The notes under the pieces are model-generated. The model was not told the DNA's origin and searched no databases. It was given only the letters and a program-made list of their open reading frames with translations. A DNA stretch of 64,000 nucleotides from Tubulanus polymorphus. Its lineage: Eukaryota; Animalia; Nemertea. The translations under genes and the position numbers were made by a program. Below, piece after piece: positions 12,143 through 64,000 of the stretch. The DNA is taken from assembly GCF_964204645.1 (NCBI RefSeq), contig NC_134025.1, positions 17,273,101 to 17,337,100 on the forward strand, given 5' to 3'. How positions within the stretch are numbered: position 1 is the stretch's first letter; each line of letters opens with the position of its first letter.

Positions 12143-14098
12143 ACAGCTGTAGCCTGTCCGTGCTTCACGGGCTTGCAAATAATTTCTGACCACGAGAAAT
12201 GGTCACCAGGTCTTATATAGACTTACCACAATATGGAATGCAACGATATGATAGGTCGTCGATAGCATTACAACGACCACAAAGAAACTATAGTTTGCCC
12301 ACGTCGAAGTACGGCACGCATTCGTCGCTACACTGCTTCGTCAACGAAACGACAAAAGACCCTGCATGAGTAGTTAAATGTACACTAAAGCTTATATGAA
12401 CACGGCTGAATACAACTAGGAGAGTTAACAAAATTTAGCTCGTGACAAATAGAAAGATTAAATTCAAATAGATCAAAAGATAAAATACCAACTTATAAAT
12501 TTAAAATGTTAGCTAAAACATCTGGGAATTATATATCTTTCCAATTTGGGTGTCTAAGATTTATAGATTCATATAGATTTTTAAGTAGTTCATTAGATAA
12601 TTTATCAAAATTATTAGTTGATGATGAATTAAAAATATTAAAACAACACTATCCAAATAATGATGATTTTCAATTAATGAGATATAAAGGGGTAATTCCA
12701 TATTCATTTTATAAATCGCATAATGATTTCAATATAACCGAATTATTAAAAGAACAATTTTATGATGAATTAAAAAATGAATATGTTAAAGATGAAGTAT
12801 ATAATAGAACATTGGATATTTGAAATCATTTCGGAATGAAAAATCATGGACAATTAGTAGATTTATATCTAAAATCAGATGTATTATTATTAACTGATAT
12901 ATTTGAAAGGTTTAGAGATGTAAATCTAAAATATCTTAATATTGATCCTTGCCATTGTTATTTTAGCCCAGGTTTAACTTGGGATTGTGGATTAAAATTT
13001 ACAGATATAAAAATGGATTCGTTAAAAATATAGATCAATTATTATTATTTGAAAAATCTATAAGAGGAGGAGTTTCGGGTGTATTAGGCGATAGATATTG
13101 CAATGTAAATGATAACCCTGGATATAAATTATTATATATAGATGCAAATAATCTATATGGTTAGGCAATGATGGAACCTCAACCTTATGGAGTATTTGAA
13201 ATAACTGAAGTTTTACAACATGAAGATAATGATAAATTTGATTGGAAGAAAAGAATTCTAGATATTGCAGATGATTCAGACACTGGTTACTTTTTTGATG
13301 TAGATTTAGAATATCATGAAAACATTAAATTTATATCTAGAAATCTAGCATACTGTCCCGAACATAAAACTGTTACACACGTAGAATTATCAAATTATCA
13401 AAAAAGAACTAAACCTGAAAATCATGTTCATACAGAAAAGTTAATGGTAATTCAGGAAGATAAATATAATTATGTAGTACATTATAGAATTTTAAAATTT
13501 TATCTAAATCAAGGAATGATTCCAAAAAAAGTACATAGATATATTTCGTTCAGTCAATCTAAATGGTTAGAAAAATATATAGATTTTAACACCAAACAGA
13601 GAACTAAAAAACTGATTTCGAAAAAGATTTCTTCAATAATGCATTCTATGGTAAGACTTGTGAAAATATTAGAAATAGAAATGATATTGAGTTAGTCAGT
13701 AATGGTAAAAGGATAAGGTATTTACAAACATATCCTAGATTTATTGGTAAGAGAATATTTGATGAAAATTTAGCTGCAGTTAAAATGAAAAGAACTTCTA
13801 TGAAATTTAATAAACCAATTTATGTTGGTGCTTCAGTTTAAGAAATATCGAAACTGTTAATGTATGAATTCTATTATAACGTATTACAACCTCATTTTGG
13901 AGAAAAGCATATAGAAATCTTATATTTTGATACTGGCAGTTACATATTAAAGATAAAACCTAATAATCTAACAAATGATTTAAAAACATTAAAACATCAT
14001 TTTGATTTCAGTAACTATCCAAAAGCTCATGAATTGTTTAGCAATGATAATAAAAAGGTGCCCGGTGAATTCAAAGATGAATTGGGAGGTGAAGAAAT

Positions 14099-32272: not shown

Positions 32273-34807
32273 TTACTCATTAGTTTTTTCAGTATTTTGT
32301 CGCTTGCCACACCAAGAGCAAATACATTCCTCAGATTGTTTCACACATGACACAACTTCATAGTGTACACCTCTGCAATTTTTCAAATAAATGTTGCCAT
32401 TTAATTCACACACGATTTGGTGCACTGAAAGTAGAACCAGCGAATCGTAACCAACCATTGCCTACAAATGTATATATATCAGCATGCAGTAAATCAGCTG
32501 TTGCAAGAATTTCAACCTCTGTCACCCAAGTACCTGTATATTTCATACGGGATTCATCAATATACTCATTTATAGTAAGTTGTGGATTTCTCAGATGTGG
32601 TTGGAATTTGTCGGAATTCTGCCGCATGTGCTTTAAAACTTCGGTGCGTATAGCCCGATGATATTGCTCAGTTCCACAGATTGAATATGAAATTGCCCGA
32701 AAAAAACAGCTTCCATCGCCTTTAATTTTCTGCGTATTACATGGAGAGTAGAGTTGTCCATCATATTTGGGCATACATTCATATCCGAGAGTTGAGGGTC
32801 GACAATGAATACCTAGAATAGAGCATAATGTTTTGCACTGACCTTTTTCTAGTGGGTTGTAAATTAAATCATCATGCTGCACGGATTCACTAGTAATAAT
32901 TACATCGCATTCATCTACTTTTGGGTTTGTATAGGGCAGTTCATCCTCACTACTTGTTTGTTGGTAGTTTGGAGAGTATGTAGTCGTTGTTTCGATAATG
33001 CTATTCTCTACAGTAGTTTCAATTTCATGGTTGATAGAAGCCACTGTAATTTCATACTGTATTGGTTGCCTCTGATTCATTGAAGCTGCAAGATTCTGAC
33101 AATGTTTGACAATACAATTAACACAAGAGTACCTTACTAATACAGCATGTCCATCAGCGGTCATCATTCCTGATGCATCTCTCGAATGTGAATCAAATAC
33201 CCAGTACATGTCATCCTGTTTTAAAACACAAAATGTATTTCCAGCAAATGTTATAAAGCATGTGTCGTAATTAAGCAGATTATTGTGCAAACATTCATGT
33301 AGTTCACTGATAATTCCAAAATTTCCAGCTCTCATTTCATCAGATAATTCAGATATAGCAACTTGAGGGGATCCAACAGTCACATTATAAATGGAATTTC
33401 CAATCTCAACAGCAGTTGGTAGCTCACTGATCAATAAATACATATTTGTTATTGTATTCATATTAGTCAATGTTGCGTATAAATCATTTCCAATATTCAA
33501 TACTGAATCAATATCATGAGGCATCCAGTTTATTACAGCTTTATTTGATGCATGAATCATTGCAGCTAATGCATTTGTTACACATTGCTTACCTGAATGA
33601 ATATCGTATTTTGGATGACCCTGGTGGAAATTTCCATGAATTGATGAACATCTCATATTCTCAGCACTTAAACATGACTCACTGTTACCAAAATTGCCAT
33701 CACAATCTCTACACGAAATCATACTCGAAATTGGTTGAATAGATGAGTCAGCTTTCATTTTCGATGAGGTTTCATGTATATTGTGACCAGCGTTATCATG
33801 TTGAATCTTATCACAGTTGTCAAGTGTAATCTTTTCACAGATTCCATATATAGCCTTATCATAGTTGCCTTGTTTAGTCTTATCATAGTTGTCATGCATA
33901 ATCGTATCACAGTTGTCATGATTGAAGTCACAAAAAACTGATTTCACTTCAATTGTCTCAACTTTGTTTTTTGTCATATCTTCATTCGAATTAGTTCCAC
34001 AATTTTGATTCATAGTCTGATCATAGATCTCATTAATATTCATTTCATGTTTTTCAGTCATTTTCATTTCATCTTTTTCATTTGTTTTCAAATCATAGTT
34101 TCCATTCATATGCATTTCATATTTTTCATTCATTTTCATTCCATGTTTTTCAGTCATTTTCATTTCATCTTTTTCATTTGCATTCAATTCATAGTTCTCA
34201 TTAGTTTTTGGTTCAAAGTTTTCATTGATTTTCACTTCATACTTCTTGTTTTGATTGTTATCAGAGTTTTCTTTTTGCGTTTCGTTAAAGTTTTCATTTT
34301 GAGCGTTTTTTAGGTTTTCATTTAAGATTTCATTTTCAACTCTTCTGTAGTCTTCATCTTGAGATTTTTCATAATTTTTTTCCATTGATCCTTTTTTCAT
34401 CTCTCTGTTTTGTCCAGTTAGGGCTGAGGGAACTCCAACCACCTCCACCTTCTGAAAATAGAAAAAAAATTCATTCACTATACGTTCGTAGAATTTTCTA
34501 ATGAGTTCAATTCAATTCAATAGCTTATAATTATCTCAACAAGAACCAGGGATGATACGACACTGGTCAGTTACACACCCTCTAAGCAACTGGTTTATGA
34601 TTTACTGATATGGTTTTTTCTGATAAAATACCAAAATCAGGCACCAAAATATTGCGCAGCTAACACATGCGATGAACAGTTTAATGAATTTTTTACTCGG
34701 AAAAAAGGCCTACATACTTCTTACTAGAAGATTAACATTTGCCTATGAAAAGAGGGTCTTACCTTCTTCGGCTGAAAGCTACCAGCTCTTCTTTTCCTTT
34801 TAGGCAT
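32273..34807 (-). CDS. Spliced Helentron gene: NLS-like exon, repeat region, herpes-tegument-like (peptidase C76-like) cysteine protease and OTU domain; frameshift near the 3' end
   Basis: Exon 34807-34763 (MPKRKRRAGSFQPKK) ends at GTAAG. The acceptor TTTTCAG joins in phase to 34451 of ORF 32406-34478. Motifs: GNFHQG..SGKQCVTN, FDSHSR; OTU GDGSCFFRAIS, W..EVEI.A.A, HYEVV. Confidence 0.78.
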
Positions 34808-42962: not shown

Positions 42963-43522
42963 ATGGTAGAATTAAAAGAATACAGAATATTTGTTGATTC
43001 TAGAAGACTTACAAATTATAAATCACATAATTTACTAGTACAATTAGATAGAGAATTTAAAAATTGTGTTGATTTAAAATTAGTAAATGTAAGTTTATGT
43101 AACTCATTTTTCAATATATCGGATAAATCTATTGAACATAGAGTCTTTTTAATTCATGATAGAAATAAAAGTAAATGGTTTCATCTTAATCTAAAACCAG
43201 GATTATATAATTTAGAAACATTAGCTCAAGAATTAATAAAAGAGCACGCTCAAAAATGGGTGCATCTGCTGGATTTGGATTAAGACTTATTAAAAGTGAT
43301 GGCTCTGATAAAGTAAGAATAAAATTAGGCAATGAAGATCAACATCAATTTCTAGTTAAAAAACCTTTAGCTAAAATTTTAGGAATAACCCCAGATGTAA
43401 GGATACGTAATGCTGATGTTACACCAAACTTAATACCCTTTACACACTTTAATATTTATTGCTATTTAATTGACCCTACAGAGACATTCGAAGCAACCAA
43501 TAAGGGTAAAAAAATATTTTAA
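42963..43522 (+). pseudogene. Minor capsid (penton-like) protein, frameshifted and truncated
   Basis: Pattern VSLCNSFFNI...PGLYN...LAKILG...FNIYC.LI. A homologous segment lies on the - strand at ~63840-64000. Confidence 0.65.
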
Positions 43523-43649
43523 AGCGTAAGGTGTCAGCGAACTCTAACTCTTTTTCAATTTTCAACTTATTTTAATAAAAATTTGATATATAAATGTGCT
43601 CAAGATTAATTAAAGTTCCCGCGAAAGAAATGAAAAAAAAATACATAAA

Positions 43650-44458
43650 TTCAATATTATATTATTTAACTGTGAATGTTAATTTAGCTGATATTTCAGG
43701 AGTAAATATAAATAAGTATTATAAATCAGACTAAAATGAATTGATTGAAACGTCAGATATATTTTGCGATAATATAATGCTGTATAAAATCATGAAAACC
43801 AGCCTTTACTGTATCATATTCTAACCATATATTTGATAATTTATAACTCATATCTTTAATTACACTAGATAGTACAATTTCATTTACAGGTGTAAAAGTT
43901 ATTTCAAACATAATGATTTCTTGTATTGCATATTTGTACAAAGGAGAATTATTATTCATTAATTCACAATATGATGGAATTTTATATCTACTATCATAGG
44001 TCATTTTAATTAAATTATCTGCGGTATTATCTTCTATTGCGTTATTAGCTTTTGAACTCAATTTATTTTGGTTTTCTGTTTGAATTCCTTTAGATATCAT
44101 ACTATTTCTATTCTCTTTTGTTAACTATAAATCTTTATAATGTGCAATTAAATCATAATCATCAAATGTAAAAACAGTTTCTGGTCCAATATTAATAGTT
44201 AATTTTTGTATCAAATATCTACCAACATTATCTACAACATAATTATTATCATTACCAGATACTTCTATATCAGCTGATAAATATATTAAATTAGGTACAT
44301 AAAAAGTATTTTGTGTTAATCTCGGAATTCTAACATATAAAGTTTCATTTGGATTAATATTACTCAGGTTATGAGTAATTATGTGATGAGATCTTTCTGC
44401 TTTAATTGCATTAGAATATTCTAGAATTCTTAGAAGGATTTATATAACTTCCACTCAT
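43650..44458 (-). pseudogene. Major capsid protein, copy C (partial)
   Basis: Clear homolog of 48252-49650 (AERSHHIITHN..NINPNETLYVRIPRL; FEITF.PVNEIVLS..Y.LSNI.LEYD). Confidence 0.78.
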
Positions 44459-45932
44459 TTATCTAAAAAAATATTACTTATTTATTTTTTTATCATATTA
44501 ACTAATCCAAAAACAATAGCACTAACATCTGTAATTAAAAATAAAATGATATGTTCAGCAGCAAAACTAATGAGATTTCCAGGAGATTTTAAAATAAAAC
44601 TAACAATTGATGCTATAACTCCAGGTAAAGCTGCAGCAGATTTTTTTAGATAATTCCCATAAATATTTTGCTAATTTTTTTCAAACCACCTTTAACTTTA
44701 TCTTCTATAGATTTATTATTCGGACGTTTATCAGGTGGTTTAGGATTTGGTGTAGATTTTAAAGCATTTGATACAGATAATCCTATTTTTGTAAATACCA
44801 TAGTTACAGCTGTTAGAATTGAAAGAATTGTTGAAAGAATACCTTCAAATTTGAATAATAATTCTATTCTATCTTTCAATGATATTTTAGAATTTGGTTT
44901 TATTAAATCTTTAACAATAACTTTTAATCCATTAATACAACAATCATATGATTTCAATAATAATTTCATTTCTTCTCTCTGAAATACAATATTATATTTT
45001 AAATAATCAATTTCTTTTTCTAAATATGCATTTTTTTAAAATTCAATTCCTTCAACAACTTTAAATCATCTATCTAATTCTAATTGTTCTAATTCTTTTC
45101 TGGTATTAAATAATTTATTTTCTAAAGGTTTAATTTTATGATATCTAATCATTTTTTCGTGCGCAATTTTTTCAGCTTCATTTCATATACTTATTATTTC
45201 TCTAATTGCTTTTCCAGAAAACATACTTAAAGAGCACATGCCATCATGCATGACCGTTTTTTAAAACCACATTAGTAATTGAGAAATGTGGGTTTCATAC
45301 CAGAGGGCGAAGTTACTGTAATGTTAGTACAACGCGAGAATTTAAAGTATTTTACATGATAAATGGGTTTCATTGTGTACAGAGGAATTAAAAGATTTAG
45401 AAGGATTTAAAATAATCTATCATGGAAAAAATGAAGGTGGTCATCATGATTTAGAAATTGTTTACTAAATAAAAAAACGAAATAATTAAAAAAATAAATT
45501 AATAAAATTAAAAAAAATAAAAATAATGAATATCTAGAATCCGAAATGACTTATCTGGACAGTTTAATTGCTCCGCATAGATGGACAAAAGAAGTGAGAT
45601 ATTCAATTAATTAAAAATAAAATTATTTTTTTGCTTTTTTTTCTGAAATATTAATCCATTTTTTTTATAGTGAACTTTGGAATTTCAACAGTAGTAGTTT
45701 CAGATTTATAAGTATCATAAATTTTATTTGATTTTTTATACCAACTACATCCAATCAAAATGAATACAATTACAAATCCAGTTGTAAAATATATATATTT
45801 ATCATATATTCTATTATTAGAAGGAGTAGAAATAACAATATTTTCACCATTTTTATTAACATCTTTATCATTTATTTTATCTTTTTTAGCTTTTTATATT
45901 CTAGTGTTTTAATTCCTAATTGCCGAGACCAT

Positions 45933-46537
45933 TCAATTTGTTTCTGTGATCTCGGTTTTTTCTTCACAGTTAATCCTTTCACCTCTTCCACCTCGCTCAT
46001 TTATTGTAGAACAATTTTTACTTTCAATATTTGAAAATGTTATAACTCCAGTTGATAATAATGTCATAAATCCACCTAATTGAAATGATAAATATCCAAA
46101 CCATTTATTTAATTCAGTCATAACTAAATAATCATTTTTTAAATCGGAATATAATATATTTTCATCTTGAATTGGTAGCATATAATTACATAATTTACTA
46201 TAACCCTTACTGCATTTTCTGATATCGCATCATTAATTCTAGCTATTCTCGCAGTTTCAAAAATCTTAAGTAATTTAATCATTTCGTCTGATTATATTGT
46301 ATCTAATTCATTATAAGTAACATTTTTACTAATAAAACTTTTACATTTCCTAGATGCAATAAATATTTCTAAGTGATGTTTGCATTAAAGATAATATTCA
46401 TAATTATTATTCGTCGTAATATCATTTAAAGCACCATTATCTTGTGTTAGTTTTGTTTCTGTTATACCCAAATCATTCAAAGTTTTTTCAATTGGAACAT
46501 CACTATTTTTAGATTTTATTTTCTTTTCACCTACCAT
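45933..46537 (-). pseudogene. Small Polinton hypothetical protein(s)
   Basis: ATAAATG start at 46537. Broken ORF ending in LKNDYLVMTELNKWFGYLSFQLGGFMTLLSTGVITF. Confidence 0.45.
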
Positions 46538-46571
46538 TTATATAACAAAAATTATAATTTGTGTTGTTGCA

Positions 46572-46850
46572 ACTAGAATTCAACTAGAATGTAACTAAAA
46601 ATAAACTAAATTAACAAGCTAGTTGAAATATTGTTTTAATTTATTTCTTGTTGAATTTTATTTGATTTTTGTTTCAACTACCATTAACTATAATGTAACT
46701 AAAAATATACTAGATTAACAAGCTAGTTGAAATATTATTGTTTTTATTTATTTCTTGTTGAATTTTATTTGATTTTTGTTTCAACTACCAATGACTAAAA
46801 TGTAACTAGAATGTAACTAAAAATATACTAGATTAACAAGCTAGTTGAAT
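46572..46850. repeat. ~105-118 bp tandem repeat (~2.5 copies) with AACTAG/CTAGTT subrepeats
   Basis: TTAACAAGCTAGTTGAA occurs at 46611, 46715 and 46833. Confidence 0.8.
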
Positions 46851-47335
46851 TTAAATAAATTCATATTTAAATGGGTGTTGTAATCGAAATAGTAATTTCA
46901 ATTTATCCATATATTCATTTTGTAAATCATGTGGAATAATATCATTTTCCTCAAGTGCATTTTTCATCGATTTTCTATCTTTATTGTAGAATAATACTAA
47001 AAATCTATTGTTTTCTCTTAAATCTTTATCAATTGAATTATATTTTTGATTTAAAACCCACGTTGCTATCCCAAAATGTCTCCCAGAAAAAGCTAAATAA
47101 CATAATTCACTTTCTTGTATTTTTGAATCATGTAAATTAGCACAATCATCGATAATAAATAATGTATTTGTTCCTCTATAAATATCAATTGCTATTTTAA
47201 TACAATTATCTAAATTTGTTTTAATCTGTGTAAGGGTCTAATAGAATAAATTTATTATTTCCAGTAATATATCTATCATAAGTTTGATTAAATCTATACG
47301 TTGGGCAAAATAATACTATATTATCAAAATCGATG
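46851..47335 (-). pseudogene. A32/FtsK-like packaging ATPase, 5' end (Walker A) deleted
   Basis: Manual translation gives FDNIVLFCPTY..NQTY and a Walker B motif (TLFIIDDCA). Confidence 0.75.
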
Positions 47336-47339
47336 GTTT

Positions 47340-48226
47340 TGTTGTTATTACCTTTTTAGTTTTATATATTTCTCTAGTAAAATTACGATCGTATCCTTTG
47401 TCAAATATCTTTTTATACTAAGAAATTCTGACATTTAAATTTAGGTTCACCAAAATCATCAGCTACATCTACAAGAAATGCTCCGTATAAATTATTCCAA
47501 AAAATTTCAGCATTTTCAGGTTTTCTAGCATCAATAGGTTTCATTCCAATAGAGGAATGATAAGAATTATTATATCCTTCAATTAGTTTTGGTAAAATAT
47601 CAATCCATTTAAAAGTATTATTTGCTGTAAAATATTTACACATTCTTGTTCTTAATGTTCTATTAAATCGTTCAACAACTGCTTTTTTATCCGATTTTGT
47701 TGAAAAATATTTAATATTATGATAATCTAAGAGTTCATGAACAGATCAATTACCAAATTCTTTTCCATCATCAAATTGTATTTTTTCTGGCTTTAGTTTA
47801 CCACCTGAAAGAAATTTTCTTAAAACATTTGAAGTTTGTACAGCATCTTTTCTGAATAGTGGAAAACTCCAAACATAACGACTAAAAATATCAATTATAT
47901 TTAATATCCACCAATAATCAATTTTTTAAGATTTTTCATATCAATTAAATCTCCTTGCCACTGTTGATCTACATAACTTACCATAGTTTTACGAGTTTTA
48001 TATTCTTAACAATGTTTTAATGTGTTGTATATGTTGGTTGTTCTAACATAAAATGATTTATATCTTTATATTTAACTGAATGTCGTGGGATTATCTTATC
48101 TAATTTATCTTGTTTTACTTGGCGCCATATGTTTTTGGTAGAAGAATAAGCAACCGAACACTCAGGGTTATAATATAAATTTCTTAAATATTGTTCTTTA
48201 GTATTACGAGTTTTTTTATTCCCCAT
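47340..48226 (-). pseudogene. int: Polinton retroviral-like (rve) integrase
   Basis: LYYNP, QQWQGDLIDM, IIDIFSRYVW, QFDDGKEF, KAVVERFNRTL, WIDILPKLI..YN.SYHSSIGMKP, FDKGY..NFTREIY. Confidence 0.92.
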
Positions 48227-48251
48227 TTATATATCGTTAATTTTAACTTTC

Positions 48252-49650
<1,399 letters not shown>

Positions 49651-49821
49651 TTATTAAGAAATGAAATTTTCTTATTTATTTTTAATCATATTCACTATAA
49701 TCCAAAAATAATTGCACTTACAACTGTAATCAAAAACAAAATTATATGTTCAGCAGCAAAACTAATAATGTTTCCAGCAGATTTTAAAACAAAACTAACA
49801 ATTGATGCAATAATTCCGGTT

Positions 49822-52800
49822 ATGGCCAAAAAGGACAGAATTTCAGTCCCGGATGATTTACCGATAACACCAGTCTAATAATGCCACCTATTAACGAGTA
49901 TTATCTACCCTATACTTATTCATCATCGACATCTTCAGTAATAACAAATGTCAATACTTTGATGTAAACTCTACTGTAGAGTATGAAAAGCAACATTCTT
50001 CAATCTGTCTTTTAAACATTCGTAGTTGTAACAGAAATTTTGATACATTTTCATATTTTTTGAGCAATTTAAAAAATGACTTTTCTATTTTCGGGTTAAC
50101 TGAAACCTGGACTAGCGAACTTCATGATAATGGCAGGCTGTACAATCTCCCAGGTATGAAAAGTGTTTTTAAGTGTAGAAAAAATTGTCAGGGAGGAGGT
50201 TTGGCCCTATTTTTCAAAGAAAGTTTTAATGTAAAACTTAGACCAGATCTATCCGAGAATAGAAATACTTTTGAATGTCTATTTATTGAATTGATTCTTG
50301 AAAAAGAAAAAAATAAATTAATTGGTCTGATCTATCGACCACCCGGACTAAGCATAAATGGCTTTAATAATGAATTAATTCCACTTTTAGTGAAACTTAA
50401 TAGAGAAGACAAAGTATGCTATCTTATGGGCGATTTCAATATCGATTTACTACAAGTTAACGTCCACAGACCAACTGATAACTATCTAGAAAATATGACT
50501 TCATTTGGGTTCATTCCATTAGTTGATAAACCTACAAGAATTAACCCACATCCTCGACGCTTATAGATAATATTTTTTGTAACGATATTCGCCATGTGTT
50601 TAGTACGGGTATTATTTGTACCGATATTTCGGATCATTTTCCTATTTTTACTGTCTGTAATCACGTTGAGTCCAAAATTGACCAAGAGAAACTATTGTGA
50701 ACGTAACATTTCGAATTCAATAGAGCTCTTCTGGCCAATGATTGGTCGGATATCTATAGTAATGCAGACCCGCAACTCGCATACAGCGCATTTAACACTA
50801 AATTCATGGAATTATATAATGAATGTTTTCCTTGTTCAACTCCCCGTAAAGTAAACGAAAATAAATTACATAAACCGTGGTTATCATCTGGATTATTGAA
50901 ATTTATTAAACACTAAAATCCCTTGTACAGAAAATCTTTGCGTAATAGAAAACATTTGAAAAATTATTTGAATTACAAACGTACCTTGTCTCGTACACTC
51001 AAATATTCCGAGAAAAAGTATTATGAGACAAAATAACTTGCAGCCAAATCCGATATGAAAAAAACATGGAATATCTTAAACAGTCTAATTGGAAAATCTT
51101 CCAATGATCGGAGTAGATTACCTTGCTCTTTCAAAAGAAACGGTATCATTGTAAACGGCTATGAAAATATCGCTAATGAGTTTAATTCTTTCTTTGTAAA
51201 TATTGGTAGCAACCTAGCCAATCAAATACCAGATACAGGTGTCCACTTCAGTGAATATCTGTCAGATCCAGTAAATGAAAACTTTTTCTTTTTCCCGACC
51301 CACCCAGATGAAATCAGTCAGATTGTAAATGATTTCTCACCCAGCAAAGGCGCTGGTGCTGATGGTTTCTCTGTAAAAGTAGTTAAGAAAATAATTGATT
51401 CTGTAAAATACCCGCTAAATCATATATTTAACTGTAGTTTAAATTCCGGTATAGTGCCGGCTGAACTGAAGGTAGTGCGAATACGTCCACTCTATAAAGC
51501 TGGCAATAATGACTCTTTTGATAATTACAGACCGATATCCGTACTGCCTTGCTTTTCTAAAATTCTCGAAAAGATAGTGTATAATCGATTAACCGAATAT
51601 TGTAACAAGTTTCATATCATTCAACCAAACCAGTTCGGCTTTCGAAAGAACCATTCAACTGCCATGGCCTTAACATTGATAACTGACGAAATTTAAAATT
51701 AAGAAGAAAACAAATCAACTATTGGGGTATTCTTAGATTTATCAAAAGCCTTTGACACTGTTGATCACGAAATCTTATTAAGAAAATTATGTTTTTTTGG
51801 AATAAGAGGCATCTCTAACAACTGGTTTGAAAACTATTTGAAGAATAGAAAACAATTTGTTCAAATTCAAAATTATAAATCCTCGTTATGTACCGTTAAA
51901 ACTGGAGTACCCCAAGGCTCAATTCTAGGTCCCTTGCTTTTTTTATTATATGTAAACGACTTTATTAAATTTTCTAAGGTTTTAAAACTTATATTGTTTG
52001 CCGATGACACAAATGCCTTTTATAGTGACATTAACTTAGACAGATTGGTACGTACAGTAAACATTGAATTATCAAAATTGTATACCTGGTTTCAAACAAA
52101 CAAGCAGTCATTAAATGTAAAGGAGACGTCATTTATGGTGTTCGGTAAACTATTGAAACATAACTTGAGAATATCAATTAACAACATAGAGATCAAAGAA
52201 GTCAATGTCACAAATTTTTTTTGAGTTTTTATTGACAGAAATCTAACCTGGGACGATCAAATAAAATCAGTTGAAAAAAAAGTTTCTCCAAGCATTGGTA
52301 TAATAAATAGAGTAAGATATAAGCTGCATGTGAGTTCTCTTCGTACCCTTTATTTGTCGCTTATTGATCCTTACCTCCAGTATTGTAACTTAGTTTGGGG
52401 ACGAAATTTCGAAAATAAACATCAGCCATTAATTGTATTGCAAAAAAGAGCTATCAGGCTAATTTCTAATTCCTATTATTTCGCGCACACTGACCCTATA
52501 TTCAAATCGTTTAATATCCTCAAGCTCAAAGATATTAATAAACTTCAGCTAGGTACTTTTATCTACAGATCTGTCCACTCCGAATTACCGAAATCATTCG
52601 AAAATTATTGGAGCCGAAATTTTCAAATCCACAGTCACAATACTCGGCGACGTCAGGATTTACAAACACTTTCTTTCAGTAGTCAAAGAAGAAAATTTTC
52701 AGTAAAAGTATCCGGCCCTTTACTTTGGAATAACATCAGTGAAAATCTAAAAAACATGGAAAATTCTAAACTGTTCCTAAGAAATTATAGAAAGCTACTT

Positions 52801-53142
52801 TGTGCTTGATTTTATCATAGAGTTATTCGAAATAAAATTATTGTTTTTGAAATATTACAGAAAACTACTGGCTTATTAAATGATTATATCTTAATCAAGC
52901 TGTTATCATAGTTTACTTTGATTGCATTTTGTGTGTTAAGGGTTGACTGTGAGCATATTATTTTCTTTATTGCATTTCTCTTTTTTTCTTTTCTCTTTTG
53001 AGGGACCTGTTTTATACAAACTATTCCTTAGTTTCTACAGGCCCCTCCAGGTCTAATTTACTGTATTTTTGTATTATGCTTTGTACACTATGCTGTAAAT
53101 TATATTTGAAAAATAAAGTGTTCAAATCAAATCAAATCAAAT
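49822..53142 (+). mobile_element. CR1/L2-type LINE, 5' truncated (ORF2 APE-RT, 3' UTR, (CAAAT)n tail)
   Basis: LNIRS, GLTETW, GGGLA, IYRPP, GDFN, YRPISVLP, QFGFR, GVPQGSILGPLLFLLYVND, LFADDT, LQKRAIR. AATAAA is followed by four CAAAT units at 53123-53142. Confidence 0.93.
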
Positions 53143-54205
53143 GCTGCAGTAGATCTTTTAGATAATTCCCATAAATATTTTGCTAATTTCTTTAAACCAT
53201 TTTAACTTCATCCTGTATAGAATTATTATGACTTGGAGGTTTATCCAGTTTATTAAGACTTGGTGAAGATTTTAATGAATTTGAAATAGCTAAACCTATT
53301 GTTGTAAATATCATAGTTACAGCTGTTAGAATTGAAAGAACTGTTATACCTTCTAACTTAAATAATAATTTTCTTCTATCTTTCAATGATATTTCAGAAT
53401 TTGGTTTTATTAACAAATCTTTAAAAATAACTTTCAATCTATTAATATTATAATCATATGATTTTAATAATAATTTAATTTCTTCTTTCTGTAATTCTAA
53501 ATTATATTTTAAATCATCAATTTCTTTTTCTTAAGTTTTCTTAATTACTTAATCAACTTAATTCTTTTTGTCTTTATTCCATTTCATCAATTACTTGATG
53601 ATCTAAATCTGATTTTGATTGCTTTAATTCTTCATTTGCTTTAGATAATTCTTTTTCTATTAATTTCAAAATCTCTTATACTTTTATCGTGTGCAATTTT
53701 ATCAGCTGCTTTATCAGAAAATATATTTAAATCTTCTAATTCTTGATATACTGCGTCAAAAGTCCATTTTGTAAAAGTTTTTCAGTTTGAACTCTTCTTG
53801 AATTAATTTTAATGGTTTTTGAATTAATAACTTCTTTAGGAATTGTTTGTGGTTCTAAATTTTCATTATCTTCAAAAAATCATCATTTCTTCGATTAAAT
53901 TCTCTTTTATTTAGAGTTATCTCTTGTTCTGTAACATCAGTTATAACATCAAAATTGATTTTCTTAATTCTAGATTGTTCTAATTCAATTAAAGTTCGTT
54001 TTGATATTATTTCATTAAGACTTTTACGAGAAGATATCTTAAAATAATAGTCATCTTTCAAATGCCAATAATAATCACCAATTAGATATTCCAAATCTTT
54101 TACTAAATAATTCACACCTTTATTAGTTATCTTGAATCCAGATTTTTTAAATATTGGTTTAAATTTTTCAATTAATTCATCATATTCTAATTCTTTTTGG
54201 TTTAC

Positions 54206-55721
54206 CTATGTTATGGCTGTTGATTGGCAGTCTGCCAAGAGTATGTTAAATCGCGGCACAAAATGTATTGATAATACTTACGGCGTTGTCTTTTATGGTG
54301 AAGCAAGTAGAATTGATGCGCTGAGGTCAGGCCGGTAAGCTTCGAACGGCTGATGCAATATTTTTCGAGAAAAACGCGATAAACATCGAAAATTCTTCGC
54401 TTTCTACAAGTTACTTGTGTTGACCTATATTTGTGTTTCCGACGTGAATACGGGAAATCCTCAGAATTTCCGGGAATTTCGGCACATCTGACGTAATTTT
54501 GGGAGTCACAAAATGGTGAGCAATTCATTTGACATTCGTGCCGTGCTTAGTTCGCTTAGAGTTTGTTCGTTTGTGAGGATTATAATGGAGTCGGCTATCT
54601 AATTTAGCGTCTCGAACTTAGTAAGTGTGGCAATTTCTATAGTCCTAGCTTGGCTTTGACTACAAAATACATTCCTTCTTTGAAAAAGTAATAGACGATG
54701 GCGCCAGCCCGAGCCGGCGGTGATAACAACGTTTTTGGAGAAAGGCCAGTCGACAAATGTTTGGCATCGTTGAGTTGAAATGAGAGTTAACTAGTCCACA
54801 CAGTTGTGTGCGCTTTTTCATTTGCAATTGCCATAGGCTAATTAGTGTGTTTGACGATGTTTTTGCGGTATAATGGCATTCTTCGCGTAACAGCGCATAC
54901 ACGTTAAAATCCGCGCACTACGTAAATCAGCTGATCCATATATCTAACATACGTACATAGAAAGTGTATGTACGCTCTGTATTCACGTGCATACACTCGC
55001 GCTGCACTTCTTCGCTCTCCTAGCGCGTATTATAAATACTGTCATACGCTGTCTGTTCCTAAGAAAGAGTGGGAAATTTTCCGTTTTAAAAAACGGTTAA
55101 TTGCCAATTAAGTTTTGATATTTTCTGTTTTTTAACCTGCATTTTGATCTATTTTCAGGAATATTCAGTTCAGAATGTTTGAGCTTGAGATTTTTCAGAG
55201 ACCTCAAGATTGTAGGGGACTCCCGCATGATAAAATATTCAACGTTTATTTGTTCTAAAAATATATTAAGTGGCAATTTCAAAAAGTCTATAAATTATGG
55301 TATGTCACTTTCTGATGAGTATTTGTGCTGCCTCATCATCTATTCCTATCTGCATTCAAGATGCTGTTTGAAACTCCTGGAATGATTGGATAGAGCATTG
55401 AACAAAATCTAAACCTAAAGGAAAATATTGCCACATTCATCAGGAATAAAATGAGCTGTCAGGCTTAAGATGAGAATTTTGGAACTGTTTAATTGGCTTC
55501 CTGGATTTTTATGCTAAATACAAAGAATTGCTACACACAGCCAATATCAAAGTTTGTGTCATGCTTCCTAGAGCCCTTAGTTTTCTGGTCATATTAAAAC
55601 CAAAACTAACAGCCACGCAAGTGAAAATCAAAATGAATACATGTATAATTGTACGTTCTTTTAGATAGTAGAAAGGTAAACCATTTAGCTTGTGGCAAAT
55701 TATTTTGTTATTTCTGTTACT
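54206..55721. mobile_element. Unclassified GC-richer non-coding insertion
   Basis: Abrupt composition change interrupting the Polinton gene. No paired termini or credible ORF found. Confidence 0.5.
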
Positions 55722-55852
55722 CTGTTTCATTATCGTTACTAAAACTTGTATCACTAAAATCAGGTTGTTGTTCATCGGTTATACCAAGTTCATCGAAAGT
55801 ACCCATTTCATAATCTTCTCCACCTTCTACATCCATTTATATAATAAAAAAA

Positions 55853-57248
55853 TTAAAATTTAGAATATAATATTCCTCCTATTATAATACCTATACAAGT
55901 TATAGCTAATTTAGTATTTTCATGTGATTTATTATCATTATTACTTTTAATTATTTCATGTTGAATAATATCAGTCTTTATATTTTGTGTAGTATGGTAA
56001 TCTTTTATTTTAGAATCATTATTTAATTTAATATTCTTTGTTTTAGTTTCTCTTGATTGAAAATGGTTTTTAATTTTTTCACCTTTCATTAGTTTTGGAG
56101 CAGGGATAATCTTTTTATTTATATCATTTAATCCAAACTTATTATTTATTGTTGCAGTTTTAATTGAATTATTATAACCAATTATATTTCCCATCTTTAA
56201 TATTAAATCATCAGAAATAATTAACAAATTAGAACCTATACAATAATTTAATCTAATATGTGATTTATCTAAATAATTTTGATATCTTACTATATTTTCT
56301 GGAATTGATCTATTTTTATCATTATGAATTGAAACTTTTACAAAATATTACAAACAAATATTACTTGAATTGTTTCTGTGTATCAAATGATGTATTTAGA
56401 TTTCCAATTATCGGGGATCTCGTTTCAACCTGTGATCCTAATATACAAATCAAATAAGTTCTAATTGATTGATTTATTCGCTGTATACCTGATTTTGTAA
56501 ATCCTTCACTATTTTCTAAAATAAAATAAACCCAACCATTAGTATTTTCTTGTTTTAAATTATCATAAAATTTCGGTAATTTATTGAAATTTAATGTTTT
56601 TAAATCCATAGTTTCTATTTTACCATAACCTAATTTATGACTATATATATTGTAAAAACTATTAATTGGTAAGGGAAGTGCACAATATTGTGCACTATTT
56701 TTAGGGCAAGGAAGTGATCTTATTGTTCCAATTTTTGTTCTAAAATCAGAATTATTTTTATTTATATTAAATTCATTACAAATTTTATAAAACTTTGATA
56801 AATTAATATTATTATCTAATTCTTTAAAATATCTAGATCCTGGTTAAGGACACTCTAATTCATTTAATATTAATCTTATTGGAAAGTATGTATGAAATCT
56901 AAATAAACATTAAATTAATTTATATTTAGAATTATTCAAATGATCATTCCAACTACTTCCACATCCTGGTGTTGCGCAATAAACTGCAAAATTTAATTGG
57001 TTCTGTCAATACTTCATATTATATTTTAATAACCATTGTTTTGCCTCATTAAAATTTTTAAAATTAATTACGTAAATATTGAATATATTCTCCACCTTAA
57101 CATTAAAATTAGTAGTTTCAGTAACATAAATATCTAAATTAATTAATGAATCTTAAACTTCATTTCTATATGAAATATCTTTATTAAAATCTATTGCTGG
57201 AATATTATATTTAATTGATTTATTATATTGGAAAGCTTTTATTGCCAT
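55853..57248 (-). pseudogene. Conserved Polinton hypothetical protein with a C-terminal TM helix
   Basis: QLNFAVYCAT.GCG, FHTYF..R.IL, GFTKSGI.RINQSIRTY..CILGSQ..TR, ending LAITCIGIIIGGILY. The 3' end is repeated at ~63750-63830. Confidence 0.65.
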
Positions 57249-57262
57249 TTATATAATAAAAA

Positions 57263-57694
57263 TTTAATAATTCATCTATTCTTTTAATTTATCTTGTTCT
57301 TCAATTGTTATATTACCATTTAAACTAATAATATAATCTAATTTTTTTTTCAATTTATTAATTTCTTTTATATTAGATTTTATTTTTTCTTTATTACTTT
57401 TTATTTCTAATTTTGAACTTATGCCGGTTAATACACTTGAACTTAAACCTAAAGCTCCAATTGAGATAGCTAAAGGTGTTAATGGTAAGAATATTGGTAG
57501 AAATGTTATTACAGAACTAATTGCAACTGAACTACTAATAATAAAATAATATATAATTTTACTTTTTAAATATTTTTCTTTTTAATTTTTAAATCATTTT
57601 CAAATTCTAATATTTGTTTTTCCAAATATAATTTTTATTTAGTTTTATTTATATCATGAGGAATAATATCAATATTATCAACTTTATCATCCAT
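57263..57694 (-). pseudogene. Small Polinton membrane protein
   Basis: ATAAATG start, with a hydrophobic segment (ISSSVAISSVITFLPIFLPLTPLAISIGALGLSSSVLTG) flanked by Lys-rich helices. Confidence 0.5.
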
Positions 57695-57712
57695 TTATTT
57701 TGTAAAAAAATT

Positions 57713-58171
57713 ACTAATTAGTAAATTCATAAGCAACAAATAATACAATAATTGTTCCACATAAAATCCAAATTATTTCATATTGTTGTTTTTCTTTACT
57801 TGGGGTATAATAATCTGATACTTTAGGTTTATATAGATGTAATTTTTTCACGATTTGTTATTGCGTAATATAAACTCATAGCATCATCAACTGACTTAAA
57901 ATCTCTATGTGAAATATTTTGATTATATAATTCTTTGTTCTTATAGTTATAATTCTTTGATTATATAATTCTTTATATAATCCATATAATTTTGCCTCTT
58001 TCCTCTATATTCATCTGCAGCTTTATTATATTTCTCTAACTCTAAGTTATGTCTTTTTTCTTCTGCTAATGAACAATTTTTATCAATATGTTTAAATATA
58101 TATCCCCCGCCAGTAAATGCTAAAGCGTTAACAATTGCCGATCCTATAATAGTTATAATTGCAGATGCCAT
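57713..58171 (-). pseudogene. Small conserved Polinton protein (GSAIVNALAF.G...EEKRH)
   Basis: ORF 57947-58171 plus a frameshifted tail ending in a hydrophobic stretch. Confidence 0.6.
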
Positions 58172-58561
58172 TTATTTAACAAAAAAATTACGCGTCAATA
58201 GGAGGAATATATTTTTGTTTTCTAAATAATCAATTGTTAATTAGATAAAATAACTGCTAATGTTAATTTCAAAATATCATTGATATCAAATCTATCAACA
58301 TAAATACTTCCCATTTTAAATACTTTTTTAATACCATTGTATAACCAACAGTTCCCACTGATAATAATGCTCCATTATATTAACCAGTTATTATCCACTA
58401 TTATCCAAAAAAATCACTATCTTCAAAATATTTAGTTATCTTATTTATAATCATTTCAACATTTATAATATTATTAGTTTCATTTTTATATATTTCAGTT
58501 ATTTTTTAATATCATCAATGATAAAATCTTCATCTAATTCATAAAATCTTAAAGACCTGAA

Positions 58562-59630
58562 ATGATTTGGAAAAGACCTTTTCTATTTTATGACAAGAAT
58601 AATATAAAAGATCATTTCTGTGAGCCTTGTCAAATAAAATATAGCCCTGAAAATATAGAAGATTGGGAGAATCATCAATTTCGTAAAGCACATATAGATA
58701 AAATTTCTAATAAATTTGAAGCAGAATTTAATGAAAGAAAAAATAATATATTAGAAAAAATAAAACATGAGAAAACGTTTCCAGATAATAAAGAAACACT
58801 TGAAAAGTTAGAAAAACAATATAATGAATTAGTAAGAAAAACATATTATTGTAAATATTTTACATTGATTATTACAACAAGTAATTCAAATCTAGATAAT
58901 AGAACAATAAAACATAAAGAAAACGTAAGAAAATACCAACAACTTAATGAAGGTCTATTGCCAAGATATGATAGAAAAAAAATTCCCACAATGTATTTAT
59001 GAGTACTTAAGACAAGAAGATTCTGTGATACTTTGTAATGAATGTGGATGGCAAAGAAATTTATGCGGTGATGAAAAAACTAGAGATTTTCGTTTAGAAC
59101 CAAAATTAAAATATCTAGATGAAATTTTTCTACGTAAGATCATACCAGAATATAAGCAATGGCTTGAAAAAATTAAAATGATAGAAAATAAAAATGGTGA
59201 AATAACTAAGAAAGATATAATAAAAACAATTATTCCATCAACATGTAACACTAAAGAAAAGAAAATGTATTTATATTTATTATTTAACGATCATTATGAA
59301 AAACCTAAATTAACAAAAGAAGATATGGAAAATATAAAATAAACATTCACAAACATTAAAATATTATGTGGATAACAAAATAACAGATTCAATTAATTAT
59401 GAATTCTTTTAAAATAAGATTGTAAATTTTTTAAACATAAATATTATAATTACATTTGATGAATTAACAAACAAAAAGAAAGCGAGAGAAAATGTGGAAT
59501 AATATAGAATTTCATCTAAATGAGAAAAATGAAATGGAAGAACCTAAAGAAATTATAGAAAATCAATTTGATGAAAATAAAGAAACCAATAGTGATTTCG
59601 AGTATGATGATATTGATTTTCTGTTTTAAT
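58562..59630 (+). pseudogene. Zinc-finger-like accessory gene convergent on polB
   Basis: FCEPC...WENH..RKAH (U1/matrin-like C2H2 spacing), a further CNEC, and an acidic tail. Frameshifted. Confidence 0.5.
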
Positions 59631-60068
59631 AACCATAAGGTAATGTTTTTATTCCATCACCCAAAATATATCGTCGAATGGATTCAAACTAGTTTTTTCA
59701 ACTTCATTAATTTTCACCTCGTTTTCTTCTGATCTTAAACAATTCATTTTATGTTTCATTACAATTGAGTTATATAAACACTTAATCTTGAAATTCTATA
59801 TGCTTGTCTACCACATGCTTTGTTATTCCTTTTAACTTTTTAGCTTCATGATCTTTTGTTCTATAACTATACATTTGACTTCTTATCCCAATAAATTCAA
59901 TCATTTCATCACCCCCTAATTCATCTTTAAATTTACCAGGCTGCTTTTTATCACCATTGCTAAATAATTCATGATCTTTTGGATAATTTCTAAAATCAAA
60001 ATGATGTTTAAATGTTTTTAAATCTTTTCTTACGTCATTTGTCTTGGTTTTAGTATGTAACTGTCAGT

Positions 60069-61428
60069 ATTTAAGCAAATTAATGGAAATCCATAGTTAA
60101 ATGTGCCATCTTCAGTTGACAAATCATAAACATAGTAAGTTGGGTTGGATGTTTCAAATAAATAACTTCTTCAGTTATTTCTTTTTCTGCATGCCTTAGA
60201 TTAAAACAATTTGGTTTAGATTTAATCAATCCAATCATATTAAAACCCATCCTCCCCCGGCAGGGATTCGAACCTGATGGCATCGAGATTGCCACGGCAC
60301 GAAACCCTGCCACAATCGACCGTGTGCGCAGATACATGCGCAGTTCAGATGATGTGATTTTTAGCCAATCACAAATCCCGTTTTATTTTAGCCCGGGTTT
60401 TCCCATTATAGTTCCTCCTTGAAATTTGCCTCAACGATTATACAACGAGCAATCTGATTGGTGCCGCCAGTTTTCGTTCAGGTCGTCTATGGCAGGGGTT
60501 CGTGCCGTGGCTGAGTGTAGCGATGCCATCAGGTTCGAGTCCCTGCAGAGGGAGGATGATTAAAACCTAATGAATTACATAATATATTTAATCCTGATAT
60601 AGCAACTTTTCCTTTTTGTGCAAATGTTATCTTTTTATCCTTTGTATATTTTTTTGTTCCATTTGCTGCGTAGAATCCTATAAAATACCATTTTCTTAAA
60701 TTATATTTTGCATTTAATACATAATCTGGAACTATCTTTTCTTTTGTTGAAGTATTAGTTTTCACTATTGCATGATTATAGAATTCATCATTATATTTTA
60801 AAGCAAAATCTTTAGGGTTATTCACAAGTATTCTATAAACTGCCGATGATTTCATATGATATCCACGATTCTAAATGTTTTATTTAAGATAAACTTCTTC
60901 ACAGTATTTATATTCTTTCTAATAATTTCAAACCTTGATTGCATAAATACCAACAATATTTATTACCACTAACATAATTATACACACCTGCTGAACCATC
61001 TCCCATAAAACATCCTTTAATAATATATTCTTTTTCTTCTAATGTTTCTGGTTCTATGTAATGAATAATGAAAAATGATTCATTTTTGGGTAAAATCTTT
61101 TATGTAATAACTCATCTCCAATTTCTATATCATTGGTTTTATTTCATCACCATTTTGTTTAATTAAACTGTGATCTTCAGTAATATCTACAAACCTTAAT
61201 TTAGTTCTAACTCTATAATTTTTTTAAATTTGTTTTATGCCTAATAATATTCTTTAATTTTTTCCATCCATTTCTTGTCCAAACATCCATTAATCCATTT
61301 ATTTGTATTAATTCTTTTTCACCATATGAAATATAAGATTTATTTTGATTAGGAATTATTTCTGAAATTTTTCTAATTAATATTTGATTATTGTATTTTA
61401 ATAATATTGGAGTATCAGCTGTTACAGA
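60069..61428 (-). mobile_element. Intein with LAGLIDADG homing endonuclease (degenerate)
   Basis: Block A SVTADTPILL; VWTRNGW...IIRHK; block B VDITEDHSL; LAGLIDADG-like KGCFMGDGS and FIGFYAANG; block F YVYDLSTEDGTF; block G LICLN followed by extein Thr. Several frameshifts and one MITE interrupt it. Confidence 0.93.
60248..60558. mobile_element. 311-bp MITE with a 9-bp TSD inside the intein
   Basis: CATCCTCCC..GCAGGGA(T/C)TCGAACCTGATGGCATCG TIRs (~70 bp, imperfect) and TSD ATTAAAACC (60239-60247/60559-60567). A related fragment lies at ~2889-2950. Confidence 0.9.
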
Positions 61429-63835
61429 ATCAAAATATAATATTTCAATATGGTTTTCCCCAAAAGGTGGGGACGATGATCTCTAGAGTGAGATCGAAAC
61501 GTCGTGTCTTATATATATTTTAGATTGAATAAATAAATTCTTTTAATCTGTAAATAGTGGGATTTTGTCTTATTATCCGTTCACCACGTTTGAGTGTGGT
61601 TATCGTTCTACTTGTGGTGATGAGTGAGGAAAAAGAAATTACTTGTGGTGATGAGTGGTGTGTCGCCCTCTCGCCCTCTGGTATGAAACCCACATTTCCC
61701 AATTACTCACATTGTTGGAAAGAACACCTATCAATGAACAGTAACTGAGCAATTTTTTAAAAATTCTTTTACAGTTTTAGGTAATTTGTAAGCTATTTTA
61801 TGTTGCTATCATTATTTTCTATGCTAGCTTTCCTTGACAGATGGCAGCACAGAATCAGTGACGTGATAGGTGCTTAACATCTCAGTGGTTATGATCGCGG
61901 TGCATCAAACAGTTCATACCATCGCAGATCTGGAACCCTGTGGTTTCCATGCCCTCAAACCTTCTGTAACTGAGGTCAGGCAACTACTACATTCAAGAGC
62001 GAATAATACTTAAGTTTTCCCATCCTGGTCATACACTTCTCTTTAATCCTCTGGATTTGTTTTCTTGTATAAATTCTAAAAGAACACTGATAACTTAAAA
62101 TAATTTAAATTTAAGCATGGAATTCAAGTTTTTGTGGGTTAATCTCTTATCTTGTGCACAACGAAGCTAGAGTATGCTAACAAATGACAAATATGTTAAG
62201 AAATGACTATTTTGTGGATTTACTTATTATCTCATGAGTTGTGTGCTGCTATTTTGCTTTAAACACCGTCTAAATATAATGTTTCAACTTGGAAATTAGT
62301 TCTGACACTTTCTAATGTCAACAGTGACTTAGGTATCCTCGGAATATACATACTCGCGAATGCAACAGGACTTTAAAGCTGACTTTTTCATTGCATTCTT
62401 AGTGCTAGATTGGAAAAGTTGTGCTCTTTATTCACTCTTGCCTGTTAGTAACAAGCAGCTGGGGTCCAGCGAAGCAGCGATGCTCAGTGTTTTCTAGCTC
62501 GGAGTATGGCTACTTACAGCTGTCAGTATCATTTAAATCGTTGTTGATACTGGCTCTGAGAATGAAATACCGCGATCATAACCACTGGGATAGACTTACT
62601 TTTACTACTATAGTCAGATGAACTTGATTCAATGCCGCCTTTGTTGTCAGAATTAGGTCTATTGACTAGTTCAAACATATATATGGTTGGATAATATTAT
62701 CCACCGGTGTGAACTTCAAATCACTGAACCTTTTGGTCTTTTATTAAGAACGTTTATAATGACAATCTAAGATGTATAATGAATGGTACTCTACGGTTGT
62801 TTAGCACCAATCACGTCATAATCCACGCCATCTTCCGGTGAAAATTGGGAACTTACACAGCTATTTTTAGCAGAAAATCTGAGGCTTGAAGACAAGATTT
62901 AAAACCATTTTTTCAAATGACATACTTATTTTTCACACACGAAATTTATATTTTGAACATATACCTAACACATGATAAAGAAACTATGGGCAGTCAGGAT
63001 GATGGCATGTGCTCTTTAAAGATTCTATTTCTTGATCTGTTGCATCTAATAATCCTTCCGGTGAAAGTTTTTCAGTTTGAACTTCCATTGATTTAAGTTT
63101 ACTGGTTTTTGAATTAACAAATTCTTTAGGAATTGTTTCTGGTTCTAAATTATTATTGATTATTTCAAATAAGTCTTCAATTCTTTGTTTAAATACTCTT
63201 TAATTTTGGTTTATTTCTGTGTCCGTAACATTTTCTATTTCATTACAATTACTTATTCTTTTAATTCTAGGTAGTTCTAATTTTTTCAAAGTTTATTCTG
63301 CTAATATCTTATTTTGATTTTTATAAGATATTAATATAATAATCATCTTTGCAAACGATAATAATATTCGCCATCTAAAAATGTCAATTCTCTTACTAAA
63401 TGTCTAGTACCTCTATCATTTATATTATATCCAGAATTCCTTAAAACAGGCTCTTATTTATACATAGATTAATTATACTCTAATTTAAAAAATCAAAAAA
63501 ATCTGGATTTTCATTTTCAACATCTATTCTAGATTTGGCTCTTCTATCAAACTCCCCTGTTGATGGTCCTTTAGAACCACTATCTGCTAAATTAGAATTA
63601 TATGCTGTTTCGTTATCATTACTAAAACTTGTGTCAGTAAAATCAGGTGGTTGTTCATCAGTTATACCAGGTTCATTGAAAGTATTCATTCCAATTTCTT
63701 CACCACCTTCTACATCCATTTATATATACAAATTTTATACATTTTAAATTAATGTTCCACCAATTACAATTCCAATATAAGTTATAGCTAATTTAGTATT
63801 TTCATATGATTTATTATTATTATTATTACTTTTCC

Positions 63836-64000
63836 ATTATTTCACGCTTTAAATGTTCCGAATTCTTTAACATTCTTCAATGGTAAAAAATTTACAATAC
63901 TAGAATTACAAAATGTACTTTTATTTGCTTCAAATGTTTTTGTAGGATCTATTAAATTGCAATAAATATAAAAATGCGTAAAAGGTATCAAATTTGGTGT
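63836..64000 (-). pseudogene. Penton-like fragment from a further, oppositely oriented Polinton copy
   Basis: The - strand reads TPNLIPFTHFYIYCNLIDPTKTFEA, matching TPNLIPFTHFNIYCYLIDPTETFEA at ~43421-43495 (+). Confidence 0.7.

Follow-up and report, generated by a model that had tools for sequence, protein, structure and literature searches.

The question raised by this locus is whether the catalytic motif of a Polinton DNA polymerase, integrated in what is likely an animal genome, has been invaded by a self-splicing homing intein, and from where such an element could have come. The locus lies in a stretch of 64,000 nucleotides (hereafter, the window), and a first-pass annotation had read it as an intein of the pol-c type that may have moved between a nucleocytovirus polymerase and a Polinton polymerase. 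The observation behind this reading is confirmed. On the minus strand, motif C is split as YFD|S...N|TDS, with the Ser encoded from position 61428 directly after YFD and the Asn ending at 60069, followed by TDS. The insert spans 1360 nt, and removal of 320 nt, corresponding to a MITE plus one copy of its target duplication, leaves 1040 nt as had been estimated, that is, around 347 codons, a length inside the 333-354 aa range of 13 intact Polinton inteins. Blocks A, B (TxxH), the two LAGLIDADG-type helices and F/G are present as pieces in shifting frames. The copy retains Ser1, the TxxH of block B, the Asp of block F, the terminal Asn and Thr+1, and lacks the penultimate His, a residue that is usual in class 1 inteins, not universal. 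Among 25 matched relatives the penultimate residue is His in 20, Lys in four and Ser in one, these records having been chosen by a pattern demanding Ser1 and Asn and being therefore not independent for those two residues.

The assignment of the insert to the Hint/LAGLIDADG inteins is borne out by a profile built from 37 non-Polinton inteins, which recovers six collinear pieces in the window (68.8, 56.4, 36.6, 35.2, 23.7 and 8.9 bits). In a control in which all 1862 segments of the window were shuffled 20 times, the profile scored 12.3 bits at best, and the five collinear pieces of 23.7-68.8 bits rule out a chance motif. Library HMMs are weak on single pieces of the window copy: TIGR01445 reaches 20.1 against a cut-off of 24.5 (E=9e-4), and Pfam gave no match on nine single pieces of the intein locus. 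Positive results came from the custom profile and from the intact relatives P0161 and P0156, both of which pass a Hint/intein HMM cut-off. Over 314 columns, the window intein is 60% identical to that of the intact P0175.

The flanks of the insert reveal the nature of the host gene. As had been claimed, they rejoin into motif C of a protein-primed Polinton polymerase (pPolB), and the window copy groups with an empty paralog in the same window and with P0007 (SH-aLRT 99.9; supports on exteins come from a fast search with 44 exteins). P0007 is an intein-free polymerase of 1319 aa that reads YFD-TDS at the matching place and itself gave no match to PF03175. Upstream, the N-extein remnant is limited to 14 codons (61429-61470), after which a high-copy repeat follows; downstream of Asn|TDS, around 145 codons of the polymerase C-terminus are left. 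In the empty paralog, further pieces of which lie at 3165-3473 and 5888-6921, the site falls between 13931 and 13932; identity to the filled copy is 36 of 42 nt on the upstream side and 16 of 18 nt on the downstream side. When compared with this paralog and with P0007, the insertion lies exactly between D and T, without duplication.

The window is full of broken Polinton copies, Gypsy elements, one of them with a SCAN domain (PF02023, above cut-off), and APE-RT LINEs, and no host genes were found in its 64 kb. The SCAN-domain Gypsy and the APE-RT LINEs are presumably animal-type elements, and judging from this repeat content the genome is likely that of an animal. A packaging ATPase fragment and an integrase remnant, located 12-13 kb from the intein among nested Polinton copies, were assigned to a neighbouring copy. 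A capsid candidate gave no usable Atlas match, and self-comparison and a motif scan of the window detected no Polinton termini (terminal inverted repeats, 6-bp target duplication), the copies being fragmented. At least three to four related Polinton copies, 72-84% alike, are nested at 3100-16600 (plus strand), 43400-49900, 53100-59400 and 62900-64000. Several other elements of the window deserve mention in their own right. In the SCAN-domain Gypsy at 8186-12202 (minus strand) the integrase lies upstream of the reverse transcriptase, an order that we take to be Gmr1-like. A tandem array of units of around 200 nt at 14097-15448 truncates the empty-site polymerase paralog, and a GC-richer segment at 61859-62818, with inverted repeats at both ends, is probably another small transposon. 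Finally, an open frame of 701 codons at 32409-34511 (minus strand) encodes a Herpes_teg_N domain and an OTU deubiquitinase domain, each scoring above its cut-off.

Table 1. Features of the intein locus and of its surroundings (window positions)
Feature	Positions	Strand	Evidence or remark
Decayed Hint and LAGLIDADG intein at pPolB motif C (pol-c site), interrupting MITE included	60069..61428	-	Sequence, profile matches
Intein N-terminal splicing region, begins at Ser1	61216..61428	-	TIGR01445 E=9e-4, under cut-off; 56.4 bits (non-Polinton profile)
Block B piece with TxxH, other frame	61128..61223	-	36.6 bits (non-Polinton profile)
First LAGLIDADG helix region	60911..61099	-	35.2 bits (non-Polinton profile)
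Region of the second LAGLIDADG helix, which here lacks its acidic catalytic residue	60568..60870	-	68.8 bits; 77% to P0001
Blocks F and G with terminal Asn	60069..60170	-	23.7 bits (non-Polinton profile)
High-copy MITE with terminal inverted repeats	60248..60558		311 nt; X5 depth ~3700-5700
Remnant N-extein, 14 codons ending YFD	61429..61470	-	36/42 nt identical to empty paralog
High-copy repeat occupying the place of the remaining polymerase	61472..61610		X5 depth ~2100-3200, ~2000 loose ends at borders
Polinton pPolB C-extein (TDS onward), itself broken	59629..60068	-	73% to P0007, 124 columns
Decayed intein-free paralog, same pPolB family	12446..14099	+	73-84% to P0007; 83% DNA identity to C-extein
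Polinton-type packaging ATPase fragment, neighbouring copy	46854..47237	-	PF04665 25.3 bits, cut-off 22.8
Integrase remnant, neighbouring copy	47416..47745	-	PF13683 E=0.008, under cut-off

The window copy cannot function. Its frame is broken by frameshifts, stops and the MITE, whose terminal inverted repeats of 38 nt (60248-60285 and 60521-60558) are flanked by an exact 9-bp target duplication (60239-60247 and 60559-60567), and the acidic residue of its second LAGLIDADG helix is gone. A short arm akin to this MITE was also observed at 2888-2949. Sequencing reads give an idea of how general this decay is. Four of 10 read runs contain 8-15% of the words searched for; they belong to one study on organism A, the same organism or a related one. 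In raw reads of run X5 (around 12% of the run read, 85% likeness), depth is around 100-230 over the intein and 3700-5700 over the MITE, with 32 in the lowest bin, and 44 reads span the MITE site without the MITE. Reads differ from the window copy at two of the frame breaks (140 of 164 and 104 of 117) and at the second endonuclease helix (124 of 132), and about one quarter do so at three other breaks. The N-junction is bridged by assembled contigs X1 record 6 and X3 record 24 and the C-junction by X1 record 2, and none of the listed read contigs covers the entire stretch. Depth over the empty site is around 480, as measured with reads on the empty paralog at 80% likeness. Runs X6 and X7 contributed no reads. 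Since reads span both the filled junctions and the empty site, filled and empty copies coexist; empty copies probably outnumber the filled ones, a rough comparison because the likeness cut-offs differ (80% versus 85%).

Intact relatives of the decayed copy have been found elsewhere. In the NCBI record P0001, the C-terminal half of the intein is joined in frame to a pPolB C-extein, with 77% likeness to the window piece 60568-60870 and a match to PF14528 at E=2e-4. A profile of eight Polinton-borne pieces, scored against 7995 candidates, retrieved 41 matches, of which 23 have pPolB-type flanks and 18 lie in PF00136 polymerases. Unbroken frames encoding pPolB plus intein, 1476-1693 aa in length, occur in several Polinton lineages and include P0175 (1693 aa), P0176 (1603), P0161 (1537), P0172 (1509) and P0174 (1504); P0175, P0161 and P0176 pass the cut-off of PF03175. 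P0161 exceeds the curated cut-offs of Intein_splicing (PF14890, 37.7 against 35.8), Hom_end (PF05204, 31.1 against 21.1), LAGLIDADG_3 (PF14528, 24.8 against 22.5) and TIGR01445 (32.9 against 24.5) as well as that of DNA_pol_B_2 (PF03175), and eight of the 10 intein-bearing proteins scanned are under the PF14890 cut-off. Ser1, the acidic residue of each LAGLIDADG helix, the block F Asp and the terminal Asn are conserved in every one of the 13 displayed intact Polinton inteins, and the intein, broken in the window copy, is in frame in these relatives. An AlphaFold model of the relative P0157 reaches a pLDDT of 92.5 with an alignment of 73 rows (31.5 for the single sequence). Its best PDB matches are the inteins TliVMA, PI-PkoII, PI-PfuI and PI-SceI, and its best matches among viral models are polymerases of a phycodnavirus, Pandoravirus and Megavirus, so that P0157 is predicted to fold like PI-SceI-type inteins.

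The hosts of the intact records would be animals as well, as inferred from the many near-identical copies on contigs of 95 kb to 1 Mb and from P0171, a record labelled as a MAG of a clam symbiont that is probably host DNA inside the symbiont bin. Six other records (P0006, P0014, P0020, P0033, P0048 and P0054), located on ENA contigs 21-358 kb long, represent many degraded members of a single intein-bearing pPolB family, which suggests a eukaryote with a large family of this kind. A Polinton pPolB with the same intein was also observed at L002 2-4189, open over 1203 codons and broken within the endonuclease region. Related-locus searches with the intein gave no match in viral contigs or metagenome contigs, and a DNA pattern search of the viral contigs gave 0 matches. 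In the phage collection there was no match for the N-terminal piece and there were weak ones for P0001 and P0157, and the Atlas matches were limited to generic LAGLIDADG/intein clusters.

Comparison of filled and empty alleles provides the signs of homing. Besides the window paralog, empty sites are found in P0007, P0204, P0205, P0207, P0208 and P0215. Of the 136 members of the P0161 cluster, 40 were read and 15 were classified, the latter on contigs of between 57 kb and 1 Mb. Seven of the 15 carry the intein (1537-1539 aa), four have a matched but empty site, three are partial and the remaining one is unmatched. Over around 1040 N-extein residues, three of the empty polymerases are 98-99.5% identical to the filled ones and the fourth is 95% identical. 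Eleven columns carry fixed differences, meaning that no residue is common to filled and empty members, and all of them lie between -7 and +44 of the site, with none among the other 1093 columns, although the columns are not independent. In the cluster of P0168, three filled records share 98.8-100% identity with the empty P0215 on either side of the site. Differences clustered at the site are what homing predicts, and the patch may reflect either co-conversion of the flank from a donor lineage or empty alleles that escape cutting.

Regarding the origin of the intein, Polinton-borne inteins are 41-49% identical to those in RNA-primed hosts, whereas the 140 flanking extein residues are 15-32% identical, which indicates that the intein moved between Polinton and RNA-primed genes. 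In a tree of 51 inteins, the 14 Polinton rows form one clade (SH-aLRT 90.9, bootstrap 92) whose sister is P0191, a non-Polinton viral row on a long branch; in reduced sets, after removal of 22 rows that were near-duplicates or on long branches, its SH-aLRT is 100. When rooted on four pol-b-site inteins, the Polinton clade is nested among RNA-primed pol-c inteins, and a tree holding all non-Polinton rows together is rejected (AU p=0.035), the rooted tree being a quick LG+G4 search with four distant outgroup rows and 22 rows left out. The insertion at YxD|TDS and the grouping with other pol-c inteins agree with the allele named in the first-pass annotation, and the separate trees that it called for place the intein among RNA-primed pol-c inteins and the extein among Polinton pPolBs (SH-aLRT 99.9). 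The neighbours of the clade, in no settled order, are P0177 (Pol-delta-like), T4/RB69-like phage polymerases and a group including an IMG/VR giant-virus MAG. Outside the Polintons, the closest inteins form a subgroup whose terminal block is of the GxPLIV(K/H)N type and which is hosted by Pol-delta-like viral polymerases (one of them on the IMG/VR giant-virus MAG) and by T4/RB69-like phage polymerases. The phage names T4 and RB69 are presumably those of the matched PDB entries. The immediate donor may therefore have been among pol-c inteins of either the giant-virus type or the T4/RB69-like phages, and of the suggested move between a nucleocytovirus polymerase and a Polinton polymerase, the transfer between RNA-primed polymerases and pPolB holds. 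Overall, intein identity, the pol-c site, the Polinton extein and a link to giant-virus-type inteins are supported.

Other members of this intein family were encountered in these searches. P0004, P0016 and P0030 are T4/RB69-like phage polymerases whose pol-c inteins, 39-41% identical to the window copy, are close to the giant-virus-type ones. P0003 is a type II topoisomerase with an intein of the same family at D|TDG, a site resembling the D|TDS of polymerases, and P0002, a PolB of viral type, carries three inteins, of which that at pol-c is shortened to 246 aa. A giant-virus contig also carries an open frame (L001 11724-12413) that, by motif, may encode a microbial rhodopsin.

Within the Polintons, intein and extein trees are largely congruent in the main group, where empty polymerases are interspersed, and they agree for three subgroups; this congruence fits long vertical inheritance. 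One could thus envisage a real splicing intein that no longer homes, derived from one old entry and inherited vertically, with filled and empty pairs produced by ordinary recombination or precise loss. Such a scenario is unlikely, albeit the most credible of the rivals considered. It would account for the agreement of both trees in the three subgroups, and it would take the patch of flanking differences as a mark of cutting-resistant empty alleles rather than of co-conversion; resistant alleles, however, imply past cutting as well. Harder for it to explain are the fixed differences clustered at the site, the acidic residue maintained in both LAGLIDADG helices of the 13 displayed inteins, and P0176. 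This ENA record is a member of a remote pPolB family, separated by 3.4 changes per column and bearing a VSR-like motif, and its intein, placed inside the Polinton clade, is 42-49% alike to those of other members in a polymerase that is 22-32% alike. On the other hand, the nested place of P0176 is not significant, a clade without it not being rejected by the AU test (p=0.33).

Two further explanations concern what the locus is. An integrated piece of giant-virus PolB, an assembly chimera or a contaminant could be suspected from the lack of host genes in the window and of any listed read contig spanning the whole stretch, but is very improbable: the tree places both flanks among Polinton pPolBs (SH-aLRT 99.9 for their grouping with P0007 and the window paralog), the intein is interrupted by a host MITE that made a target duplication, each of the two junctions is bridged by contigs, P0001 has the identical in-frame C-junction, and the surroundings are packed with Gypsy and LINE elements. 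Equally slight are the chances of a Hint domain that does not splice (Hedgehog-like or BIL-like) or of a fused nuclease retained in the protein. Hog-Hint domains do occur in animals, and the penultimate His is absent from the window copy and from five of the 25 matched relatives. Moreover, fused nucleases such as the HNH and VSR inserts are carried by pPolBs (PMC10748475). Yet this insert splits a catalytic motif of which empty alleles exist, a LAGLIDADG domain lies at its centre and Ser1, TxxH, the block F Asp, Asn and Thr+1 are all present, the fold matches of its relative are inteins, and the viral pol-c relatives likewise end in KN. It is very probable, then, that the locus is a dead intein copy in motif C of a Polinton pPolB, in a likely animal genome, whose intact relatives are predicted to splice and likely home. 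Somewhat more likely than not, it belongs to an active clade of self-splicing homing inteins that parasitise Polintons of animal germlines, have a giant-virus-type origin, crossed between pPolB families and still convert empty copies. The intein is no single accident, as it occurs in several Polinton lineages in which intact and empty alleles coexist; the animal host is deduced from repeats.

At the mechanistic level, the conserved residues and the site of insertion allow class 1 splicing to be proposed for the intact copies, following established intein chemistry (PMC7765530). Ser1 would undergo an N-O acyl shift aided by the Thr and His of block B, Thr+1 would accept the N-extein with the participation of the block F Asp, and the Asn would then cyclise, leaving a rejoined YxD-TDS motif that would restore the polymerase. 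With the catalytic motif split by the insert, intact copies would have to splice before they could replicate, and this need would keep the splicing domain under selection. The LAGLIDADG domain, in turn, is predicted to cut motif C DNA in a Polinton copy that lacks the intein; repair off the filled copy would then install the intein plus some flank, either between integrated paralogs or between replicating elements. As the trees suggest, a pol-c intein of an RNA-primed viral PolB most likely gave rise to the lineage in a single event. Thereafter the intein would for the most part have followed one clade of Polinton polymerases, being gained or lost repeatedly and jumping at least once into a distant pPolB family. 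The window copy would have died later through frameshifts, stops, the MITE and the loss of its 5' part. Splicing, cleavage and expression of the intact Polinton inteins are, at this stage, predictions from sequence.

Various known systems help to place these inteins. The pol-c site was defined in PMC549080 (Ogata 2005), and the inteins of archaeal and Mimivirus PolB described there occupy the same site (YGD|TDS there, YxD|TDS here) and share Ser1, the terminal Asn, Thr+1, a length of around 350 aa and a LAGLIDADG domain. They reside, however, in RNA-primed PolB, whereas the host gene here is a protein-primed Polinton pPolB (PF03175) carried by a multicopy element, probably on an animal chromosome. 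Endogenised DNA polymerases of viral origin with inteins have been reported in Klebsormidium, Tetrabaena and Hondaea (PMC10710043), on eukaryotic nuclear scaffolds as here; those hosts are algae and protists and the genes are viral-like DNA polymerases, whereas here the carrier is a Polinton, present in each host as numerous copies with and without the intein. Nuclease domains within Polinton polymerases are also known from the HNH and VSR inserts of pPolB (PMC10748475, Jeong 2023), suggested to stem from intein invasions (PMC11071308, Krupovic 2024). In the available text of these articles such inserts are not described as splicing, and neither Hint nor LAGLIDADG occurs in the main text of PMC10748475; the Polinton intein, in contrast, interrupts the active site and comes with a complete splicing domain. 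The insect-infecting Chilo iridescent virus mentioned in PMC549080 shows that an intein in a DNA virus of animals was already known, but that intein is of the glutamine type and belongs to an iridovirus, not to a germline-integrating transposon-like element. No Hint-bearing intein in a Polinton or other protein-primed polymerase was found in the literature lying outside subscription journals, Repbase and supplements, and the available portions of PMC12220804, PMC5718144, PMC13768754 and PMC8502044 hold nothing on inteins in Polintons. The locus represents a known pol-c intein allele in a new kind of host gene and probably on animal chromosomes.

Inteins are given as absent from metazoan genomes in the accessible text of PMC5784728 and PMC8529194, and the Polinton-borne family would be an exception to this reported absence, though in a viral-type gene rather than a host gene. 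As intact copies must splice to make polymerase, a spliced junction peptide would mark the expression of Polinton polymerases in animals. With dozens of copies in one host, some filled and some empty, there would also be a natural system in which homing, co-conversion and escape can be followed among paralogs, one that needs neither mating nor horizontal transfer. In practical terms, unspliced inserts will distort the annotation and the trees of pPolB. Transfer between polymerases that are 15-32% alike bears on how inteins reach distant homologues and on the encounter of animal Polintons with large DNA viruses in one cell. If the reading of an active homing clade is true, protein splicing and intein homing would be encoded in metazoan chromosomes, and these inteins would be a molecular trace of Polintons having co-occupied cells with large DNA viruses.
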